IMG/VR virus record: IMGVR_UViG_3300011113_000545
Span: 1-52,322 of that record
Length of the DNA stretch: 52,322 bases
Source of the DNA: a virus
Taxonomy: Duplodnaviria; Caudoviricetes
Strand: one strand, 5' to 3'
Shown: positions 1,699 through 50,214 of the stretch, piece after piece
How the letters are laid out: every line of letters starts with the position of its first letter
How positions within the stretch are numbered: the first letter of the stretch is position 1
Notes under the pieces: model-generated
Told to the model about the DNA's origin: nothing
Database searches by the model: none
What the model saw: the letters and a program-made list of their open reading frames with translations, nothing else
Made by a program: the position numbers and the translations under genes

Positions 1699-2466
1699 AT
1701 GAATCATGCATTTTTTGTTACCTCAAGTATCGAGTTAGATCCTGCTCGCAATTTTAAAGGGACAAGGAAACGCACAGTCTTTTCTACCAATGAAAGGCTG
1801 GTTCAAACAATTAAAACTATAACCAATCTCCAAGAAAAAGATCCGACAGCGCCTATTTACTTAATAGATTCGTCTGCAAGGGCATTTGAACAATTAAATT
1901 GTATAGGTGTAAAGAATCTTCATTATATTAAACTACAAGAACTAAATCCCGCAGTAGCAGACATAGTAAGAACTCATTCGTCGAAATCGTACTGTGAATG
2001 TTTAATGATATTGGAATTTTTTAAACATTACAAAAAAGAATTACAAAAATATAACTTTATAACAAAGATATGTGCTCGTTATACACTGTCGGATAATTAC
2101 AGTATAGATCTGTTTACGCCTGAAAATATGGATAAGTTTTTTATGAAAAAAGAACTTATGTGGGACAATGAACATATTAATTTTTTAACAGAAGTGCAGT
2201 TACCTCGGGATTTATTAGTTGACAATAAACTTTATGGATTTTATACTGTAGCACATGCCATTGGCAATCAAAAAATTGATCAGTACGAAGCAATAATGGC
2301 AGCATCTGCACAAATGGCAGCAGAACACGGCAAGTATTATCATCAAGATGTTGAATATACATTGCATCTGTATTTGAGATTATTTGGACTTCTTAAAGAT
2401 GTAATTATTGTGGATTGGACTGTGGATGGTCGCTGCGGTGTTACCGGAGATTGGGTGAGATATTAA
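1699..2466 (+). CDS. hypothetical protein, possible glycosyltransferase-like
   Basis: 255-aa ORF translationally coupled within the sugar cluster; no decisive motif. Confidence 0.45.
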   Translation: MNHAFFVTSSIELDPARNFKGTRKRTVFSTNERLVQTIKTITNLQEKDPTAPIYLIDSSARAFEQLNCIGVKNLHYIKLQELNPAVADIVRTHSSKSYCECLMILEFFKHYKKELQKYNFITKICARYTLSDNYSIDLFTPENMDKFFMKKELMWDNEHINFLTEVQLPRDLLVDNKLYGFYTVAHAIGNQKIDQYEAIMAASAQMAAEHGKYYHQDVEYTLHLYLRLFGLLKDVIIVDWTVDGRCGVTGDWVRY

Positions 2467-3312
2467 ATGCACACTATTAAACAAATAGGATATATGCCGG
2501 GGTACGGACTTGACAGTCTGCATCGTTTTACAAAACAATTTAATAAACGTATTTCGGTCAGCATTGACAATATTAATAGTTGTCCAGATGCGGATTTTAA
2601 AGTGTTAATGCAAAGTGAGCCTCCTAACCTTTATATAATGTTTTGCGGGTTAGTGCAACAAAATTATCAAAATTTTGATTTAATATTAACATATGATGAT
2701 AGACTGTTGTCTTTGCCTAATGCAGTAGAATTTTGTCCTGTTGGATCTTGGATATCCGACAATTTAAAACTAGAAAAAAGAAATCAAATTAGTTATATGA
2801 TGAGCAGTAAATTAAATGGCACTGCCTATCATATGAGATATATGATAATGCGTCGATTTGAAAAAATAAAATCTATAGGCGAGTTTGAGTTATTATGGCA
2901 TCGTAGTCCTCCGCGGGTACCCAGTAAAGATCCATTTTTTGCAAATGCAAAATTTAACATTGCCTGCGAAAATCAAATTATGACAAACATGTTTACTGAA
3001 AAACTGTTGGACTGTTTTAAAACTTTAACAGTACCCATTTATTATGGATGCACAAATATTGAAAAATATTTCAATCCTAAAGGTATTATTCAATTTAACA
3101 CAATAGAAGAACTCGAGAACATTTTCGAAAATTTAACACCTGACGTATACGACGAAATGCTGCCATATCTTCATGAAAATTTCGAAGCAGCCAAGCCCTA
3201 TTGGGAAAAAACAATTTATCAAAGAATAGAAGATGAAATTGAAAAAGCGTTGAATAAACCGTCAATGTTTGAAGACGAAAATAATTTACTTTACACAGTT
3301 TTGCTTGAATAA
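2467..3312 (+). CDS. GT10 alpha-1,3-fucosyltransferase-like
   Basis: KFNIACEN..FTEKLLDCFKTLTVPIYYG matches the GT10 alpha-1,3-FucT motif. Confidence 0.85.
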   Translation: MHTIKQIGYMPGYGLDSLHRFTKQFNKRISVSIDNINSCPDADFKVLMQSEPPNLYIMFCGLVQQNYQNFDLILTYDDRLLSLPNAVEFCPVGSWISDNLKLEKRNQISYMMSSKLNGTAYHMRYMIMRRFEKIKSIGEFELLWHRSPPRVPSKDPFFANAKFNIACENQIMTNMFTEKLLDCFKTLTVPIYYGCTNIEKYFNPKGIIQFNTIEELENIFENLTPDVYDEMLPYLHENFEAAKPYWEKTIYQRIEDEIEKALNKPSMFEDENNLLYTVLLE

Positions 3313-38510: not shown

Positions 38511-38588
38511 GTCCGCGTAGCTCAGTTGGATTAGAGCACTTGCCTACGAAGCAGGGGGTCAGAGGTTCGAATCCTTTCGCGGACGCCA
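38511..38588 (+). tRNA. tRNA-Arg(ACG)
   Basis: CTTGC-CTACGAA-GCAGG, GCCA. Confidence 0.93.
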
Positions 38589-38592
38589 AAAA

Positions 38593-39321
38593 CTAAAAAG
38601 TTTTTTGTTTGAAATCTTCAGAAAAAACACCGTCGACTCTTATTGAATAACATGCATGTTCTGCTGGATCTGATCCATGGTAGTTGCCTGTATTAAACCA
38701 TAAACAATGTCCTGGTAAATAGATTTTATCATTGTTTGACATATCTAATAAGAAAAACTTTTTTCTGTTATTAAAACTAAGCCAAATAAATTCATCAGAA
38801 TTGGCTTGATTGACGTCTGGAAAATCTTTATGAATTACAGTTGATGTACCTGTGTAATTTAAAAATATTGTTATCCTGCCATAGTCTTTAAAAATATTCT
38901 GATTATCTAACCAATTATAAAAAAAATTTAATTGACTGTCTTCGGGAATTTTTGTACAGTTTGATTCTAAATGTTTGTTAGTATAATTATTGGCGTATCT
39001 TGTTGTAATTGTAAAAGGTCCGCTGGAAATTTCTTCTTCAAATATTATGTAATTACCAAATAAATCTCGGTTACATAAATCAATTAATTCTGTTCTTAAT
39101 TTGTTATTTTCTATAGAATTAATATTTTGTTCAAAAGCGTTTTGATAGTACCATACTGTATTTTCGGGAGCCAGTAAGTTTCCTCTTACATATTTTGTGG
39201 GCTTGATTAAATGGTTATTTCTTGCAATAAATGTTGACACAAAAGGTTTAAGTTCAAATAAACTATTTAAATCAACATAATTATCGAAACTGACAAATGG
39301 TTTGTTGTTAACTAGAAACAT
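38593..39321 (-). CDS. hypothetical protein, possible 2OG/cupin oxygenase
   Basis: IHKD...YHG...SIRVDG pattern; TAAATA upstream. Confidence 0.55.
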   Translation of the reverse strand: MFLVNNKPFVSFDNYVDLNSLFELKPFVSTFIARNNHLIKPTKYVRGNLLAPENTVWYYQNAFEQNINSIENNKLRTELIDLCNRDLFGNYIIFEEEISSGPFTITTRYANNYTNKHLESNCTKIPEDSQLNFFYNWLDNQNIFKDYGRITIFLNYTGTSTVIHKDFPDVNQANSDEFIWLSFNNRKKFFLLDMSNNDKIYLPGHCLWFNTGNYHGSDPAEHACYSIRVDGVFSEDFKQKTF

Positions 39322-39401
39322 GAAAATATTTAGTAAGTTTTTTATCAGCGTTATAATAAGAAATCACTGGTCGATTCGACCAGTGATAATGATTTGAAAA
39401 T

Positions 39402-39523: not shown

Positions 39524-39598
39524 TTGACAGTAATTCGGTTTTTTGCTATACTAGAGCTTAGACAGTTAGAAATAACTGACGAACAAGTTCTTTAAAAA
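39524..39598 (+). promoter_or_regulatory. sigma70 promoter followed by rrn-like boxB/boxA
   Basis: TTGACA-17-TATACT; hairpin CAGTTA-GAAA-TAACTG (39563-78); GTTCTTTAAAAA (39587-98). Confidence 0.7.
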
Positions 39599-39703
39599 TT
39601 TATGACATATATACCGCTGGGAAGCGGTCACTATATGTAAACGCACTGCCGAACAGTCAAATGGCCATCGCCGATGAGTGGTGCGTTTACATATAGTGAA
39701 TAC

Positions 39704-39787
39704 GCGACTGTGGCGTAATCGGTAGCCGCAGGAGACTTAAAATCTCCCGTCTTTGACGTGCCGGTTCGAGTCCGGCCAGTCGCACCA
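39704..39787 (+). tRNA. tRNA-Leu(TAA), second copy
   Basis: GGAGA-CTTAAAA-TCTCC, variable arm, ACCA. Confidence 0.92.
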
Positions 39788-39855
39788 AGTATTATTGCAC
39801 GATTCGTCTATCGGTTAGGACGCCCTTTTGTATAAATAAAACAGAGGGGTGTAAT

Positions 39856-40530
39856 ATGGCAATAGGCGGATATAGAGAAGGTTCAGGAAGATCAAAGAGT
39901 GGTTACTATAATGGAATTTATTGTGGTAGCACTTATGAACTTTGTTGGGTGATCTATAATATAGACCATCAAATAGAATTTACAAGATTTCCTGGAAAGT
40001 TAGAAAAAGACGGTATAACTTATTATCCTGATTTTCTACTATCTGATGGAAAGACGATAGTAGAAACAAAAGGATACGAGAAACAAGAATCTGTTGACAA
40101 TAAAACAAAGGTTGCTGAATCTTTTGGTTATTCTGTAAAAGTGTTGCGTAAAGAGGATTTACAATATGCTTTTGAATATGTTACTAAAAAATATGGAACA
40201 AAGAAATATTTTGAACTGTATGATGGATATAAACCAAAATATAAACATCTTTGTGAATGTTGTAAAATTGAGTTCGAAACAGATAGAAAGATAAAAGCCG
40301 AAACAAAATTTTGTAGCAGAGTTTGTGCCGGCAGATATCAAAAATCTAAGAACGTAATGACAGACGAGATGAAGAAGAAAATTTCTGATTCATTGCTTGG
40401 TAAAAAAGTTAAACCATATAAAAGAAAATATAAACAAGTTTGGATTACTGACGGTAAAGTAAACACTAGAATAAAAGATGGTGATAAAATTTCTGAAGGA
40501 TTCAAGCAAGGTAGAACAATGTCGCATTAG
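39856..40530 (+). CDS. putative free-standing homing endonuclease (PD-(D/E)xK + Zn finger + NUMOD-like)
   Basis: STYEL, YYPDF...VETKG, C..C...FCS..C, EMKKKISDSLLG, WITDG..N. Confidence 0.8.
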   Translation: MAIGGYREGSGRSKSGYYNGIYCGSTYELCWVIYNIDHQIEFTRFPGKLEKDGITYYPDFLLSDGKTIVETKGYEKQESVDNKTKVAESFGYSVKVLRKEDLQYAFEYVTKKYGTKKYFELYDGYKPKYKHLCECCKIEFETDRKIKAETKFCSRVCAGRYQKSKNVMTDEMKKKISDSLLGKKVKPYKRKYKQVWITDGKVNTRIKDGDKISEGFKQGRTMSH

Positions 40531-40595
40531 ATTATCGGTTAGATCAACAGCCTTTCACGCTGTAGAGACGGGTTCGATTCCCGTATGCGACTCCA
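40521..40595 (+). tRNA. tRNA-Glu(TTC), nested in the split tRNA
   Basis: ACAGC-CTTTCAC-GCTGT, GTCGCAT/ATGCGAC, TCCA; overlaps the ORF stop codon. Confidence 0.9.
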
Positions 40596-40742
40596 CTAAT
40601 ATTCGGAAAGACGAGTTCGACTCTCGTATCGTGTACCAGTTTTATTGGGGGAGTGGCGAGTATGGTGAATGCCCAATTTGGCAGAGACCCAATGCGCCTA
40701 TTCTTAAATGACCATGTGAGGCGCCCCTTATCATTTTTTTTT

Positions 40743-40831
40743 GGATCCTGTTCCCAGCGGCGGACTGTAAATTCGTTGCCTTAATATGCTGGGTGGTTGG
40801 CGGTTAGGTTCGATTCCTTCAGGGTCCACCA
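40743..40831 (+). tRNA. atypical tRNA-Tyr(GTA)
   Basis: GGATCCT/AGGGTCC-ACCA, GCGGA-CTGTAAA-TTCGT, T loop; no normal D arm. Confidence 0.65.
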
Positions 40832-40836
40832 AATTT

Positions 40837-40915
40837 GGCTCGTTAGCATAGTCTGGCCTATTGCGCCGCCCTGTCACGGCGGAGGACACCGGTTCGAATC
40901 CGGTACGGGTCGCCA
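40837..40915 (+). tRNA. tRNA-Asp(GTC)
   Basis: CCGCC-CTGTCAC-GGCGG, GCCA. Confidence 0.93.
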
Positions 40916-40918
40916 AGT

Positions 40919-41321
40919 TTTGCAAGTGTAGATATTGTGAAAGCAAGGCGTCGAAAACCTTGTGAGTTGGGATTAATTATCCTAGTAGCAAACAAGTAAC
41001 AATTAGTACTACGTACCTCTAACCCTGCCGGCCTTGTATCAAGGGTAAAATGATAGCGAATGAAGGAGGCGCTATTACTTGCAAACCTAACGTTCCGTCG
41101 TCAACGGATAGTCTGACCCAGACGATGAGAAGTGCAGTGACAAGCACGGGTGGTTCTGAGATTTGGAATATAAGTCTCACAGTAGGAGTACTGCGGTCCA
41201 ACCTAACCGGCGTTAGCAACACGATAGCGGTCCCTGTCGGGAAGCGGGTGGAGGGTGTGTGAGATTTGCGGGGCAACCCAAGAGATGATGCACTATAATT
41301 ACCGCCGGGGGATGCAGAGCA
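40919..41321 (+). ncRNA. large GC-rich structured ncRNA candidate
   Basis: ~400 nt without a credible ORF; closing stem TTTGCAAGT/ACTTGCAAA and many hairpins. Confidence 0.55.
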
Positions 41322-43331: not shown

Positions 43332-44936
43332 ATGATACACGGCATAATTCTCACAGACAATACTTTTAGTAACATGGACATTACTTGTCATAGAGGATCT
43401 GGTGCCCATAAAATTGCAACTCATCTAAGAAATCATGGCTATAACATAGAAGTTGTCGATTATTGTTTAAGCTGGTCACAGGAAGAATTAGAATTATTAC
43501 TGGCTAAACTGATTTCAAAAGATACATTGTTTTTAGGTATAGGCAGTAATTTATTTTTAGATAGATCCCACTTTGACAATAACATTCTTTGGTTTAAAAA
43601 CAAATATCCTAAGATAGCAGTTATTCTAGGGGGAAATCAAACTTTGTCACGTTCTACCCCAGGAGTTGATTATTATGTGGAAGGGTATGCAGAAAATGCT
43701 ATACTGCACCTATTAGAATATCTTCGGGGAAATATTAATAAAGATGCTATTCATTGGAGTGCTAATGCCGAAGGCAAAAATCTAATAGATGCTCTTGGTA
43801 ATTACGGCCAAGTTGACACCAGGGATTTAAGTATACAATACTTACCTTCGGATTTTTTACAACCTGAACAAACACTGGGTCTAGAAACAGCAAGAGGCTG
43901 TATCTTTAAATGCAAATTTTGCACATATCCATTGATCGGAAAAAGTAAATTAGACTATATTAGAGATTCTTCTACCATTGTTCGAGAACTACAACAAAAT
44001 TACGATCAATGGGGAATTACAAATTATCTAATCAACGAAGATACTTTTAATGACAGCATTGAAAAACTAGAGCTGCTTGAAAAAGCTATTACTAGTTTGC
44101 CTTTTAAAATTAATTTTACTGCGTATGCCAGATTGGATCTGATAGTAGCAAAACCTCATAGCATTGAATTACTCAGAAATATGGGTATGAAAGGTGTACA
44201 TTTCGGCATCGAAACTTTTAGTAAAGATGCTGGAAGGTTAGTGGGAAAAGGATTTTCGGGACAACGTCTTAAAGATGGATTATTATGGTGGAAAGAACAA
44301 ACACCAGACATTTCCACTGGATGCTCTTTGATAGTTGGGTTGCCAGGAGACACCAGCGATTATCATGCAGAAAATGAATGGTTTGCTAACAATGAAATTG
44401 ATTATTGGTTTTGGCAACCTTTATATATTACTAAGAATCAGCAATTCGTTTATTCGAGTGAGTTTAGTAAAGATTATAACAAGTATGGTCTTGAAATTAT
44501 GTCAGATTCTGAAGTGTCTGCTGAAGTTAGAAATCTTTGGAAATTAGAGTATAAATTTACAAAAAAATCTCATCCGTTTAGCTATAGATCGCTGCTCAAT
44601 GAGAACTTCAGAAGTAAAGTAAATTATTGGAAAGATATTAAATCTGGCCAAAATTATTTTACCGCACTAAAATTAAGTTGTGAACTTAATCAAAGTGTCA
44701 AAAATCAAAAGGTTAGTCCGTGGACTATGTTTGATTATGTAAGTTTAGGATACAAAATAGATGAAATAAGAACATGGGGTAAACATATCCCTGTTCCGCC
44801 TGTGCGTGAAATAAAAATTCAAGCAGATAACAGAATAAATGAATATAAACGCAAAAAACTTGCATATGATTACTTAGAATTTTATAGTCATAGGCAACAA
44901 TCAATTCGACGAACTATTCCTATAGTTCTACAGTAA
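43332..44936 (+). CDS. B12-binding-domain radical SAM protein
   Basis: ETARGCIFKCKFC, EDTFND, FGIET, LIVGLPG; N-terminal cobalamin-binding-like domain. Confidence 0.88.
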   Translation: MIHGIILTDNTFSNMDITCHRGSGAHKIATHLRNHGYNIEVVDYCLSWSQEELELLLAKLISKDTLFLGIGSNLFLDRSHFDNNILWFKNKYPKIAVILGGNQTLSRSTPGVDYYVEGYAENAILHLLEYLRGNINKDAIHWSANAEGKNLIDALGNYGQVDTRDLSIQYLPSDFLQPEQTLGLETARGCIFKCKFCTYPLIGKSKLDYIRDSSTIVRELQQNYDQWGITNYLINEDTFNDSIEKLELLEKAITSLPFKINFTAYARLDLIVAKPHSIELLRNMGMKGVHFGIETFSKDAGRLVGKGFSGQRLKDGLLWWKEQTPDISTGCSLIVGLPGDTSDYHAENEWFANNEIDYWFWQPLYITKNQQFVYSSEFSKDYNKYGLEIMSDSEVSAEVRNLWKLEYKFTKKSHPFSYRSLLNENFRSKVNYWKDIKSGQNYFTALKLSCELNQSVKNQKVSPWTMFDYVSLGYKIDEIRTWGKHIPVPPVREIKIQADNRINEYKRKKLAYDYLEFYSHRQQSIRRTIPIVLQ

Positions 44937-45849: not shown

Positions 45850-47106
45850 TTAAATTTCAATATCTTTTAGTAATTTTGCTATAGTCGGAAATGTCTTAGT
45901 ATAATCGGTGCCACGACGTCGATCTAACTCAGTTAAGTATGTTTTTAGTTGACATTGTAAATTTGGATTAGATTGACTATGTGCTATCTCTTTGGCAATG
46001 CCTTCGAAATATTCTTTATATTTCATTTTGTCGGGATCTCCCATAGCATCAAATTTATCAATTGCTTGTTGATATCCCATGTTTAATAACATGGGGCCGA
46101 ATATAGTGGGATGAAAATATTTATGTCCTCCAGTTTTCATTAGAGACCAGTATACTGTTCTGACCCGACTCCAACTATTAATTTTTTCAACAAGATCTGG
46201 TAAACTCGGAATTGTTAGCGGCCCAAGGGCAGAGTTAATGTTTAGCACTATATCTGTGTTGTTTAGAACATATTCAAAATTCTTTTCAAAAAGATCCAGC
46301 TGTAGACCATAGCGAACATATTCTGCGGGTTTACCCCAACAATCGATGCTGCCTATTAGATTAATTTGATTTAATTGGGAATTGATTTTTAATTTTTGTA
46401 TCTGATCAATTTGATATTTAAATTTTTCATGATCTATTGTAAGATTACTAAAGAATACAAGATCTAGATTGGGTAGCTTTTTAGTTTCTATAAAATTTAA
46501 TAACCGTTGTGTTTCTTTTTGTATGAACGGCTCGCCCCCTAAAATTAGAAGTTTATTCAGATTCTGAATGTTTTTATCTAGCCACTTAAACATTTGATCG
46601 GTTGCATCAGAAAAATTTTCAGGTATTTGAAATTCTGAATTAATATGAACTCCATTTTTATTGAAGGTACCAAATTTAATATTTTCTTGATTAATTTGAC
46701 TGCTAAACTTGGGCGTACAATATGTGCATTTTAGATTACAAACATTGCTAAAATAAATTTCTAGTATTCTTGGGCTTATATTTACCGCTGTTAAATCTGT
46801 ATCTAGTTCAGGTGGTGCAGTAATTCCTGGAAAATCTAAATGTATCATACGGTCGCTGGTTCCGCCGGCAACTTCGATAGACTTACAATGTTCGCAGCCG
46901 CGCCCAGGCCATTTGCCTTCGAGCATTAATCGGCGATCCTGAAGTTTTTCGGGAGTATTATGAAAATTAAAAGTGTTTAAATCAAACTTGGTTTGATTAA
47001 CTCTATGACAACTTGCAGTAGACAAAGACGTAAGAAATACTGTGCTATGACTCCATTTTAATTGACATGCAGTCGCAGTTTTAATCGGAAATATTTTTTG
47101 ATTCAC
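45850..47106 (-). CDS. radical SAM protein, paralog of 32342-33586
   Basis: CNLKCTYC, GGEP, FPIKT..C.LKW; GTG at 47106 is the likely start because the longer call overlaps a tRNA. Confidence 0.85.
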   Translation of the reverse strand: MNQKIFPIKTATACQLKWSHSTVFLTSLSTASCHRVNQTKFDLNTFNFHNTPEKLQDRRLMLEGKWPGRGCEHCKSIEVAGGTSDRMIHLDFPGITAPPELDTDLTAVNISPRILEIYFSNVCNLKCTYCTPKFSSQINQENIKFGTFNKNGVHINSEFQIPENFSDATDQMFKWLDKNIQNLNKLLILGGEPFIQKETQRLLNFIETKKLPNLDLVFFSNLTIDHEKFKYQIDQIQKLKINSQLNQINLIGSIDCWGKPAEYVRYGLQLDLFEKNFEYVLNNTDIVLNINSALGPLTIPSLPDLVEKINSWSRVRTVYWSLMKTGGHKYFHPTIFGPMLLNMGYQQAIDKFDAMGDPDKMKYKEYFEGIAKEIAHSQSNPNLQCQLKTYLTELDRRRGTDYTKTFPTIAKLLKDIEI

Positions 47107-47153
47107 TGAATACTTAGCTAAGTTACTTAATGCAAGTTTAAAACATTTAACAT

Positions 47154-47229
47154 AGAAGCGTAGCATAGCGGCTAATGCGCCACCTTCATACGGTGTTTAT
47201 CGTGGGTTCGAGTCCCACCGCTTCTACCA
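47154..47229 (+). tRNA. tRNA-Met(CAT), elongator-like
   Basis: CCACC-TTCATAC-GGTGT, ACCA. Confidence 0.88.
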
Positions 47230-49398: not shown

Positions 49399-50214
49399 AT
49401 GATCACTTATTTAAGATTCGTCGACCCAGATCAAATAGCAGTGTCGCATGTTGCAATAAAAGTTAAACTATTAATTCTTATAAGTTTTATTACAACTGTA
49501 TGGTGGGTAATCACTAACAACGAAACTTGGTGGGTAAATTTTTTATATTTTTACGTTTCTTTGTTGGCTGGCAGAGTTTTTGTAGAGATAGGATTACATA
49601 GGTTTTTTAGTCACAAAAGCTTTAAAACTTCTGAATTTAAAAAAAATTTTTTGTTGATTGGCGGAACCTTAATAGGATTAGGTAGTTGTATATCTTATGT
49701 AGGAGTACACAGAACTCATCATAGGTACTCCGACACTCCCAAAGATCCTCATAGTCCTGCTAATATAGGAATAATTAAAACTTGGTTAACAATGTGGGAT
49801 AAAAACTGGGTAGTTGATTTTTCTTCAGTTAAAGATTTATTAAGAGACCCATTGCAAATGTTTTTGCACAGACACTATTTTAAAATTATAATATGTTGGA
49901 TACTACTACTAAGTTTGATTTCCCTTATTATAAGTTCGATAGTTCCGTTGTTACTCTTATTTGCACTACCGAATCTAATGACATTCATTACAGCGGGTTT
50001 TACTAATGCCATCGGGCATACAGTAGGTTACAGAAATTTTGACACAGATGACCGTAGTACAAATCAATATTTTACTAGATTTTTACTTTTAAGTGCAGGA
50101 CTACACAATAATCATCATGCATATCCCAATGCTTGGAATTTTAATGTTCGTAGCAAGTGGTTTGAGTTTGATACCGAGGGAACATTAATCAAACATTTTT
50201 TCATAAAATATTGA
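49399..50214 (+). CDS. membrane fatty acid desaturase (delta-9-like)
   Basis: His boxes HRFFSH, HRTHH, HNNHH; DPHSP; transmembrane segments. Confidence 0.9.
   Translation: MITYLRFVDPDQIAVSHVAIKVKLLILISFITTVWWVITNNETWWVNFLYFYVSLLAGRVFVEIGLHRFFSHKSFKTSEFKKNFLLIGGTLIGLGSCISYVGVHRTHHRYSDTPKDPHSPANIGIIKTWLTMWDKNWVVDFSSVKDLLRDPLQMFLHRHYFKIIICWILLLSLISLIISSIVPLLLLFALPNLMTFITAGFTNAIGHTVGYRNFDTDDRSTNQYFTRFLLLSAGLHNNHHAYPNAWNFNVRSKWFEFDTEGTLIKHFFIKY

Follow-up and report, generated by a model that had tools for sequence, protein, structure and literature searches.

A putative free-standing homing-endonuclease cassette that splits a phage tRNA-Glu gene and carries a tRNA-Glu of its own

In the tRNA cluster of a Caudoviricetes genome (the window, all 52,322 nt of IMG/VR record IMGVR_UViG_3300011113_000545), two ends of one tRNA-Glu gene lie hundreds of nucleotides apart, with an open reading frame and a second, complete tRNA-Glu between them. 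How did the gene come to be split, and what replaces it? An earlier note, made from the sequence of the window, had placed the two ends at coordinates that proved exact:

39797..39823, + strand: 5′ remnant of the resident tRNA-Glu(UUC), 27 nt, tRNA positions 1-27 (acceptor strand, D arm, bases 26-27)
40604..40638, + strand: 3′ remnant of the resident tRNA-Glu, 35 nt, tRNA positions 41-76

The 3′ remnant comprises the last 3 nt of the anticodon stem, the variable loop, the T arm, the acceptor strand, the A73 discriminator and CCA. Compared with the intact tRNA-Glu of a related viral contig (L065, 5402-5476), the 5′ remnant is identical at 27/27 positions and the 3′ remnant at 34/35, a single T-loop base being different. 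The outer acceptor strands pair at 7/7 positions, with a G1-U72 pair like that of the intact allele. An exact 25-mer from the 5′ remnant is carried by 71 viral contigs; it continues into a whole tRNA-Glu in 70 of them, and in the one exception (L035) a homologue of the ORF breaks it at the point where it is broken in the window. An exact 28-mer from the 3′ remnant had no match in the viral contigs, because the window departs from the common allele at one T-loop base. L065 is syntenic with the window, with the same tRNA order, flanks that are 84-98% identical and an intact tRNA-Glu at the insertion site; L029 and L006 are likewise syntenic and also have the intact gene there. The earlier note had proposed a comparison with relatives for an uninterrupted allele, and such an allele is present in 70 of 71 contigs, including syntenic L065. 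The boundaries of the insert follow from BLAST alignment to these three contigs:

39704..39787, + strand: tRNA-Leu(TAA), upstream neighbour of the split gene, as it also is in the empty-site contig L065
39824..40603, + strand: inserted cassette, 780 bp in place of 13 bp (tRNA positions 28-40), from BLAST against L065, L029 and L006

The absent 13 nt (TGCCCTTTCAAGG) are positions 28-40 of the intact gene and include the whole anticodon loop; the same 13 letters linking both sides were also read in an RNA-library contig of a relative. The halves had been described as separated by an insert of ~770 nt: the separation stands, and the distance measures 780 nt. The string GCCCTTT, which had been assigned to the tRNA 5′ half, belongs to it through G26-C27, and the remainder is insert sequence. 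A 1104-nt contig from DNA run X2, a separate study, matches window 39758-40861 with zero differences, and so the locus is not an assembly artefact. Presence and absence of the insert at one locus among close relatives is the polymorphism expected of a free-standing homing gene.

The cassette has three parts, a TATAAATA box within a hairpin, an ORF of 675 nt and a tRNA of 75 nt; the ORF and the tRNA leave just 32 nt ahead of the one and 8 nt past the other:

39856..40530, + strand: ORF of 224 aa, putative homing endonuclease with a PD-(D/E)xK-type core, a four-Cys module and a NUMOD3-like tail
40521..40595, + strand: nested tRNA-Glu(UUC), complete, CCA encoded (ARAGORN; Rfam tRNA 63.7 bits, gathering score 29)
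40596..40603, + strand: 8-nt spacer that separates the nested tRNA from the 3′ remnant, right end of the cassette

The ORF is out of frame with any host protein. Residues E28, P58-D59 and E70-x-K72, together with the four cysteines C133, C136, C153 and C157, are invariant in 24 sequences. This is the residue pattern of PD-(D/E)xK enzymes and agrees with the assignment in the earlier note, the product being a putative nuclease. A structure model (pLDDT 86) gave zero matches at E<=0.001 in a search of PDB folds; the best of the weak matches (E 0.014-0.16) were all PD-(D/E)xK proteins, namely Bax1 nuclease, lambda-exonuclease-like folds and the I-Bth0305I core. BFVD yielded 24 matches at E<=0.001, some of them named TnsA-N endonuclease, Endonuclease I, NUMOD3 or homing endonuclease. 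Pfam matches to DUF7487, DUF559 and NUMOD3 all fell below cut-off, and a PDB profile search with the ORF returned nothing meaningful. Membership of the GIY-YIG Seg family (SegB-like) was considered and rejected, as no GIY-YIG family appeared among the Pfam or PHROG matches.

ARAGORN and Rfam agree with the earlier note that the nested tRNA-Glu (anticodon TTC) is complete, and it is the sole tRNA-Glu among the 32 tRNAs of the window. It has the same D-loop string as the outer tRNA, as had been seen before. Its D stem reads GATT/GATC, compared with GTCT/GGAC in the resident gene. The ORF stop codon TAG does form bases 8-10 of the nested tRNA, giving an ORF/tRNA overlap of 10 nt. Among the companion tRNAs of homologous ORFs, compensatory changes occur at 21/21 cloverleaf pairs across 29 sequences. 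The usual D stem of the remnants, GTCT/GGAC, was found in 1/30 companion tRNAs and GGAC in 19/23 remnants, a comparison limited by a remnant search pattern that permitted just six D-stem endings and by companion tRNAs that, being co-inherited with the nuclease, are non-independent samples. Four of 19 other tRNA-Glu genes in the homologue loci have the canonical D stem (L084, L140, L143 and L152), and that of L084 lies ~60 nt from the ORF. D-stem positions matter for recognition by glutamyl-tRNA synthetase, and the companion changes include such positions. The combination of a divergent D stem and a retained cloverleaf fits resistance to cleavage, rather than proving it.

The ORF belongs to a large unannotated family, with 828 metagenomic matches and close relatives (<=91% identity) across many samples. 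Among 50,697 records of deposited phages there are 10 distant family matches, every one metagenome-derived, and when 39600-40950 was searched against the deposited phages in distant mode, the only matches were to unrelated phages, in their tRNA-Asp region. A tRNA-Glu overlaps or adjoins the ORF in 43 of 64 distinct homologue loci: 12 share the window's 10-nt overlap, a further 16 have the tRNA directly past the ORF, 9 directly ahead of it and 6 antisense. The window-type overlap, kept in those 12 of 64 other loci, persists among homologues down to ~50-60% identity. In 22/64 loci the ORF follows a tRNA-Glu 5′ remnant that stops near position 26-28. The window and L082/L035 have the same remnant with differing companion tRNAs; the window and L083 have a companion acceptor stem in common and differing target alleles. 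The cassette recurs with varied target remnants and varied companions, as a mobile unit would. ARAGORN detected no adjacent tRNA-Glu in the remaining 21/64 loci, and two loci (L087 and L114) have a remnant and no companion; thus the companion tRNA is not obligatory.

We interpret the locus as a free-standing homing-endonuclease cassette carrying its own, probably uncleavable, tRNA-Glu, with a probability of roughly 0.8. Directly visible in the comparisons are the empty- and filled-site polymorphism, the recurrence of the layout, the family link to tRNA-Glu, and the conservation of catalytic residues and cloverleaf. The 780-bp unit would have replaced the resident anticodon stem-loop (13 bp, positions 28-40) and left two dead remnants. 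The 224-aa protein would recognise and cut cassette-free tRNA-Glu DNA in co-infecting relatives, probably somewhere between the 3′ strand of the D stem and the anticodon loop, and repair of the break would copy the cassette from the donor genome, by analogy with the T4 Seg and Mob enzymes. Comparative data suggest that the donor would escape cutting, since the remnants no longer contain the site and the companion has a changed version of it, different chiefly at the D stem. Decoding would pass to the companion, since the cluster of 32 tRNAs contains no other tRNA-Glu and the cloverleaf is retained in related companions, and invasion would then be cheap for the phage. Simple homologous homing cannot account for the first insertion, since the junctions are untidy and 13 bp were lost.

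Candidate signals for expression of the nuclease lie upstream of the ORF:

39524..39552, + strand: sigma-70-like promoter, upstream of tRNA-Leu, 11/12 consensus positions and a TG extension (a consensus match only)
39822..39850, + strand: hairpin of 10 pairs, with the TATAAATA box in its loop and the Shine-Dalgarno sequence GAGGGG (39844-39849) in its 3′ strand
39831..39838, + strand: TATAAATA box, promoter-like, 25 nt ahead of the start codon

The hairpin has a predicted energy of -12.3 kcal/mol (RNAfold; z -4.7 against 200 shuffles). That of L087 is comparable (z -4.7) and those elsewhere are weaker, being clear (z <= -2) in just 7/19 loci. The exact TATAAATA box is present in 9/20 remnant-bearing loci and ATAAATA in 14/20; over the whole window TATAAATA is not enriched, with 8 found and 7.06 expected. 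We take the box to fit the T4 late-promoter consensus, and it may act as a promoter. Expression would probably be delayed: read-through transcripts from the tRNA cluster, for which the promoter at 39524..39552 is the likely source, would fold the hairpin and hide the ribosome-binding site, and transcripts starting at the box inside the hairpin would leave it free. A hairpin hiding the ribosome-binding site, with transcripts from inside it, is described for I-TevI, segB and mobE in PMC2988022. The region 40639-40750 folds no better than shuffles (z -0.07). A terminator at the D arm of the 5′ remnant and the T-rich run after it was a pattern match that we treated as chance. The nuclease ORF was not covered in the RNA-library runs X15 and X16, which is uninformative on expression because these are contigs of metagenome libraries.

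More tentatively, the nuclease and tRNA might form a co-evolved, self-complementing unit in which placing the stop codon in the tRNA throttles a dangerous enzyme, a possibility that we regard as doubtful. With the stop codon inside the companion tRNA, 5′ processing of the companion could, speculatively, remove it from the nuclease message. RNase P maturation of the tRNA and termination of the nuclease would be mutually exclusive on each transcript, which would give either a tRNA and a stop-less message targeted by quality control, or a translatable nuclease message. Such a unit may spread at almost no cost, replacing and diversifying tRNA-Glu alleles among freshwater jumbo phages. If true, the coupling would tie tRNA maturation to the control of a selfish gene.

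Several other explanations of the split gene have to be weighed. In its place within the anticodon arm the insert resembles the group I introns of bacterial tRNA genes; even so, an intron of group I, group II or bulge-helix-bulge type, whose removal would restore the outer tRNA, has a negligible probability. Rfam at E<=1 reported tRNAs and chance-level matches alone, with no group I or II intron, and ARAGORN, allowing introns of <=1500 nt and with lowered thresholds too, found no split tRNA spanning the insert. The conserved ORF (675 nt) and the tRNA (75 nt) take up nearly all of the 780 nt, so that, as the earlier note had argued for a non-splicing insert, the 32 + 8 nt left free have no room for a group I core. 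Splicing could not restore the tRNA in any case, because the remnants lack the 13 nt of positions 28-40, anticodon included, and their ligation yields no tRNA; a group I intron in the anticodon loop and an archaeal-type split or permuted tRNA were rejected on the same ground. The sole contig that joins 39823 to 40604 carries the 13 missing letters and is thus the intact allele of a relative. A joined form without them was not seen in the contigs of four runs, which cannot exclude one, and several apparent splicing joints from the 5′ remnant to the nested tRNA come from other tRNA-Glu alleles mapping across both. The nuclease ORF accordingly lies outside any self-splicing intron or intein, as a free-standing gene does. 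It is also very unlikely that the outer pieces function as RNA, forming a tRNA-like frame round the nuclease mRNA that gives RNase P or 3′-end processing sites or message stability. Encoded CCA is still present, and both remnants with 7/7 acceptor pairing occur in the window, L083, L086, L088 and L125, but the frame is not conserved, as most loci with a 5′ remnant lack a 3′ remnant (for example L081, L082, L076, L096, L100, L106 and L113). The 3′ remnant of L083 has a decayed T stem, and the frame would in any case be cut when the nested tRNA is processed.

A fossil invasion is unlikely, though better placed: the cassette would have arrived once, via break repair that co-converted the donor's neighbouring tRNA-Glu, leaving an immobile or repurposed nuclease and a companion that is a mere hitch-hiker. 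The untidy junctions with 13 bp lost, the loci without an adjacent tRNA-Glu (21/64) or companion (L087, L114), and a lone tRNA-Glu in L160, whose first 25 bases are those of the nested tRNA and which stands without the ORF, speak for it. Against it, the ORF is untruncated and none of the invariant residues has been lost, close relatives at <=91% identity occur in many samples, the remnants are nearly undecayed (27/27 and 34/35), the ORF/tRNA overlap is retained down to ~50-60% identity, and one remnant is found with several companions and one companion with several remnants. Finally, the protein might cut tRNA-Glu as RNA, as a weapon against the host or a competing phage, paired with a resistant phage tRNA-Glu and with no DNA homing. 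The tight link to tRNA-Glu in 43/64 loci and the altered stems of the companions would suit such a role, and phage tRNAs counteract tRNA-cutting defences according to PMC13096335. We consider it highly improbable, as an ORF inside broken tRNA-Glu genes requires a DNA event at that gene, and the PD-(D/E)xK core, Zn module, NUMOD3-like tail and BFVD neighbours are of DNA-endonuclease type.

Homing endonucleases usually avoid harm by occupying introns, inteins or intergenic sites. The proposed homing cassette apparently deals with an RNA gene in another way, by breaking the target and bringing a spare. T4 SegF, SegG and MobE home without introns and convert a neighbouring marker in relatives via break repair with co-conversion. 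The cassette resembles them in having a nuclease gene without an intron; theirs adjoin intact protein genes, whereas the cassette destroys its target and a full substitute travels along. I-Ssp6803I, the PD-(D/E)xK homing endonuclease of a cyanobacterial tRNA-fMet group I intron, has its site in the anticodon region and is alike in tRNA region and in the nuclease type proposed for the cassette. Unlike the cassette nuclease, it comes from a self-splicing intron whose removal restores the tRNA; it had no match to the ORF in PDB sequence or fold searches. Aeh1 mobE splits nrdA. It is named in PMC2988022, and PMC2677866 describes ‘fractured genes’, in which a free-standing endonuclease lies between split-intein halves. 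The likeness is that an endonuclease splits a host gene, rescue needs no RNA splicing and the nuclease has its own control elements. Their rescue comes from protein assembly or trans splicing of the halves, whereas the halves here are dead and a second complete gene would rescue. The T4 SegB gene is, in PMC2330249, a free-standing nuclease gene in the midst of phage tRNA genes whose product cuts the tRNA genes of relatives without segB, and which spreads with neighbouring tRNA genes; PMC2988022 adds a late promoter and a hairpin hiding the ribosome-binding site. The two share a free-standing nuclease in a phage tRNA cluster, a promoter-like box and a hairpin that pairs with the ribosome-binding site. 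SegB is a GIY-YIG enzyme encoded between tRNA genes that recognises the T-arm motif present at many tRNA 3′ ends, whereas the cassette protein is PD-(D/E)xK-type and its gene lies inside tRNA-Glu alone, with a break in the anticodon arm and a 10-nt overlap with the companion.

A literature search, with subscription journals and supplements outside its scope, found no account of a tRNA gene split by a nuclease cassette that also supplies a replacement. The analysis defines a large unannotated nuclease family with a clear predicted target, the tRNA-Glu gene, so the specificity of the family is directly testable, and the recognition site could be mapped with the naturally occurring tRNA-Glu alleles, some cut and some uncut. 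Cassettes of this kind could account for stray tRNA halves in phage tRNA clusters and for part of the mosaicism there, features that an annotation pipeline would overlook or label as pseudogenes. The idea that the cassette brings just a new 5′ half for the resident 3′ half was rejected as a general explanation, since most companions depart from the remnants in both strands of the acceptor stem; L100 may be an exception. The phage bearing the cassette is a large freshwater phage, and the layout recurs in many related phages.

A tRNA-Glu gene in the tRNA cluster of the window has been split in two by a 780-base insert, which holds, in order, a hairpin with a TATAAATA box, a 224-aa ORF, a complete tRNA-Glu(TTC) and an 8-nt spacer. 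The parts are as follows.

39797-39823: 5' remnant of tRNA-Glu, its first 27 bases (acceptor strand, D arm, positions 26-27)
39822-39850: hairpin
39856-40530: ORF, 224 aa
40521-40595: complete tRNA-Glu(TTC) (ARAGORN; Rfam 63.7 bits)
40604-40638: 3' remnant of tRNA-Glu, its last 35 bases (anticodon-stem end, variable loop, T arm, acceptor strand, A73, CCA)

The earlier note had taken the outer pieces for halves of one tRNA, separated by an ORF and a second tRNA-Glu whose bases 8-10 are the TAG stop of that ORF. Each of these claims was confirmed, the first by the 7/7 pairs formed between the acceptor strands of the remnants and by an intact gene in L065, a syntenic relative with an identical tRNA gene order and 84-98% flank identity. 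Here an uninterrupted tRNA-Glu lies exactly at the position of the insert, and the window pieces match it at 27/27 (5') and 34/35 (3') bases; 13 bases of the L065 allele, TGCCCTTTCAAGG (tRNA positions 28-40), are replaced in the window by the 780. An RNA-library contig of a relative joins 39823 to 40604 via exactly the same 13 letters. An exact match to the 25-mer of the 5' piece was found in 71 viral contigs, 70 of which continue into an entire tRNA-Glu with an identical 3' acceptor strand; in the remaining contig, L035, a homologous ORF interrupts the gene at this very point. A 1104-nt contig of DNA run X2, from a study other than the possible source, equals 39758-40861 with zero differences, which rules out an artefact of assembly. 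The split is real and beyond chance.

A reading of the insert as an intron was rejected. No Rfam intron family matched at E<=1, ARAGORN found no tRNA spanning the insert when long introns were allowed, and the ORF and tRNA take up 740 of the 780 bases. The weightiest point is that the joined flanks cannot form a tRNA, because the whole anticodon loop is missing from them. The statement in the earlier note that a group I intron core has no room here is borne out.

The layout recurs widely. A protein search (8 loci) and an alignment search (80) gave 64 distinct homologue loci, in 43 of which the ORF has a tRNA-Glu overlapping or adjacent to it. Twelve loci share the 10-nt overlap of the window, in which tRNA bases 8-10 double as the stop codon; the tRNA-Glu otherwise lies just downstream of the ORF in 16, lies <=150 nt upstream in nine, or is entered antisense by the ORF in six (L108, L110, L118, L121, L124, L136). 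In these last loci the homologue is antisense to the tRNA cluster and runs into the tRNA-Glu from its 3' side, and in 5/6 it terminates at a stop codon in, or close to, the antisense of that gene's anticodon loop. ARAGORN found no adjacent tRNA-Glu in the other 21 loci, 19 of which have other tRNAs. In 22/64 loci the ORF is preceded by a 5' remnant of tRNA-Glu that breaks off around position 26-28, with many different acceptor sequences. The window, L083, L086, L088 and L125 have both remnants, with 7/7 acceptor pairs. L092 has the 3' remnant only; seven loci (L081, L082, L076, L096, L100, L106, L113) have the 5' remnant, ORF and tRNA without a 3' remnant; in L111 the ORF follows a complete tRNA-Glu and precedes a 3' remnant; and in L087 and L114 a remnant is found without a companion. 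In L084 (about 2360-3280), three tRNA-Glu-derived units follow one another: a canonical complete tRNA-Glu, a 5' remnant with the nuclease ORF behind it, and a companion whose D stem is altered.

Parts of the cassette are also found in new combinations. The window shares its remnant with L035 and L082, whose companion tRNAs are quite different (nucleases 75% identical), and shares a companion acceptor stem with L083, where the target allele differs (nucleases 67% identical). Such cross-combination is as expected of a mobile unit of nuclease and tRNA, and indicates a cassette that is mobile with respect to its target. Together with the empty site and the recurrence, it supports the proposal in the earlier note of a non-splicing mobile element carrying its own tRNA-Glu. 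Another phage contig, L160, has a lone tRNA-Glu whose first 25 bases are those of the nested tRNA; alleles of the nested type thus occur as ordinary resident genes as well.

The companion is the sole tRNA-Glu among the 32 tRNAs of the window, and L065 likewise has one, the intact resident gene. Across 29 of 30 distinct companions (that of L139, with a long extra arm, was excluded), compensatory changes occur at 21/21 predicted cloverleaf pairs. Both points speak for a companion that is probably functional. Of 23 remnants, counting that of the window, 19 have GGAC as the 3' strand of the D stem (the search pattern allowed only six endings). The usual remnant D stem, GTCT/GGAC, was seen in 1/30 companions, the others having GATT/GATC (9), GTTT/GAAC (5), TTCT/GGAA (3) or further variants. 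This contrast would fit a companion immune to cleavage, with the reservation that companions passed on together with the nuclease do not count as independent samples. The D-stem changes hit positions that we take to be identity elements for E. coli glutamyl-tRNA synthetase. The break always falls just 3' of the D stem, and the anticodon stem is freely variable among the 70 intact alleles, whose D arm was fixed by the search itself. From this we infer that the recognition site includes the D-stem 3' strand and the anticodon loop. A canonical D stem is present in 4 of 19 other tRNA-Glu genes of homologue loci, and the one that adjoins the ORF, in L084, argues against a simple rule of immunity by D stem only. 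Many companions (L081, L086, L092, L095, L099, L102, L105, L112) have an unusual T loop (ATCGTCR, or ATCGAAA in others) in place of the usual TTCGA type, with the T stem kept.

The 224-aa protein has 828 relatives at E<=0.001 in a metagenome protein collection, almost all unnamed and without Pfam domains. A 24-sequence alignment has invariant E28, P58-D59, E70, K72 and cysteines 133, 136, 153 and 157. Pfam gave sub-threshold matches to DUF7487, NUMOD3 and DUF559, and PHROGs matched the C-terminal modules weakly to families named 'HNH endonuclease' and 'endonuclease'. AlphaFold modelled the protein with good confidence (pLDDT 86). The best PDB matches of the model, none significant (best E 0.014), are all PD-(D/E)xK nucleases: Bax1, a lambda-exonuclease relative and the I-Bth0305I core. 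Among viral structure models there were 24 matches at E<=0.001, two of them family members, the others including proteins named TnsA-N endonuclease, Endonuclease I, NUMOD3 protein, Holliday junction resolvase and homing endonuclease; ESM Atlas neighbours, as leads only, agree in direction. We read the protein as a putative DNA endonuclease whose PD-(D/E)xK core is joined by a zinc module and a NUMOD3-like tail for binding DNA, the customary architecture of phage homing enzymes. Matches were found in only 10 of 50,697 deposited phage records, nine of them from Lak megaphages and one from an uncultured phage; all are distant (36-43% identity over about half of the protein), and the records are metagenome-derived and unannotated. 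Those of the Prevotella phage Lak-B records (H41-H49) are about 42% identical over residues 4-128.

The hairpin before the ORF has 10 pairs (-12.3 kcal/mol, z -4.7), with TATAAATA in its loop and the Shine-Dalgarno sequence GAGGGG as its 3' strand. The L087 hairpin is equally strong with different bases, and z is <= -2 in 7/19 loci. An exact copy of TATAAATA, which we take to be the T4 late-promoter consensus, was found in 9 of the 20 loci with a remnant, 25-30 nt upstream of the start codon in 8/9, and ATAAATA in 14/20. The box is not enriched across the window (8 found, 7.06 expected); of the seven copies elsewhere, four precede tRNA-region ORFs (43332, 48129 (-), 49399, 51243) by 8-60 nt. 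A strong sigma-70-like promoter, by consensus match, lies upstream of tRNA-Leu. As described in PMC2988022, the RBS of I-TevI, I-TevII, I-TevIII, segB and Aeh1 mobE is hidden by a hairpin in read-through transcripts and freed in late transcripts that start inside it. By the same control logic, read-through transcripts of the cassette would mask the RBS and those begun at TATAAATA within the hairpin would expose it. The idea in the earlier note that tRNA processing could leave a non-stop nuclease mRNA builds on the position of the ORF stop codon inside the tRNA, an overlap kept in 12/64 loci besides the window.

With enzyme activity, immunity and regulation as we infer them, the cassette resembles intron-less homing in its mode of working. 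Of the cases described so far, T4 SegB comes nearest: this GIY-YIG enzyme, encoded free-standing in the tRNA cluster, cuts the tRNA genes of relatives at a T-arm motif, neighbouring tRNA genes being carried along (PMC2330249); a 2026 paper describes tRNA-locus amplification driven by SegB (PMC13096335). In contrast to SegB, the putative enzyme here is of PD-(D/E)xK type, has a single predicted target gene (tRNA-Glu), is encoded inside that gene, which is thereby destroyed, and is accompanied by a complete substitute gene overlapping its ORF. Aeh1 mobE splits the protein gene nrdA. In 'fractured genes', protein genes are split by free-standing endonucleases (PMC2677866). Rescue in those cases is by protein assembly or trans-splicing, whereas here it would be by a spare gene. 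Literature outside subscription journals and supplements yielded no account of the split-tRNA/substitute arrangement or of the nuclease family.

The window is a 52-kb viral contig fragment encoding a large tail sheath and terminase, with its 32 tRNA genes at 36-51 kb; runs holding the stretch are labelled mostly as freshwater, drinking-water, river or lake metagenomes. Three ORFs of the cluster (43332-44936, 45850-47166 (-), 49399-50214) comprise two radical-SAM-domain proteins and one fatty-acid-desaturase-like protein. A second indel relative to L065 is an 881-bp segment (38512-39392), missing from the relative, with a tRNA-Arg(ACG) and a 242-aa minus-strand ORF (38593-39321) that had no Pfam match. 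The window and L065 diverge immediately to the right of the 3' remnant (40644-40825 in the window, 5482-5787 in L065), with an extra tRNA-Asp in L065 and unrelated sequence plus a tRNA-Tyr-like gene in the window; this is local mosaicism adjoining the cassette. The tRNA-Tyr(GTA)-like gene (40742-40828) has a long extra arm, paired acceptor ends, a CCA and an aberrant-looking D arm; it was not called by ARAGORN and gave a weak Rfam match to tRNA-Sec (22.8 bits). It is covered by RNA-library contigs of X15.
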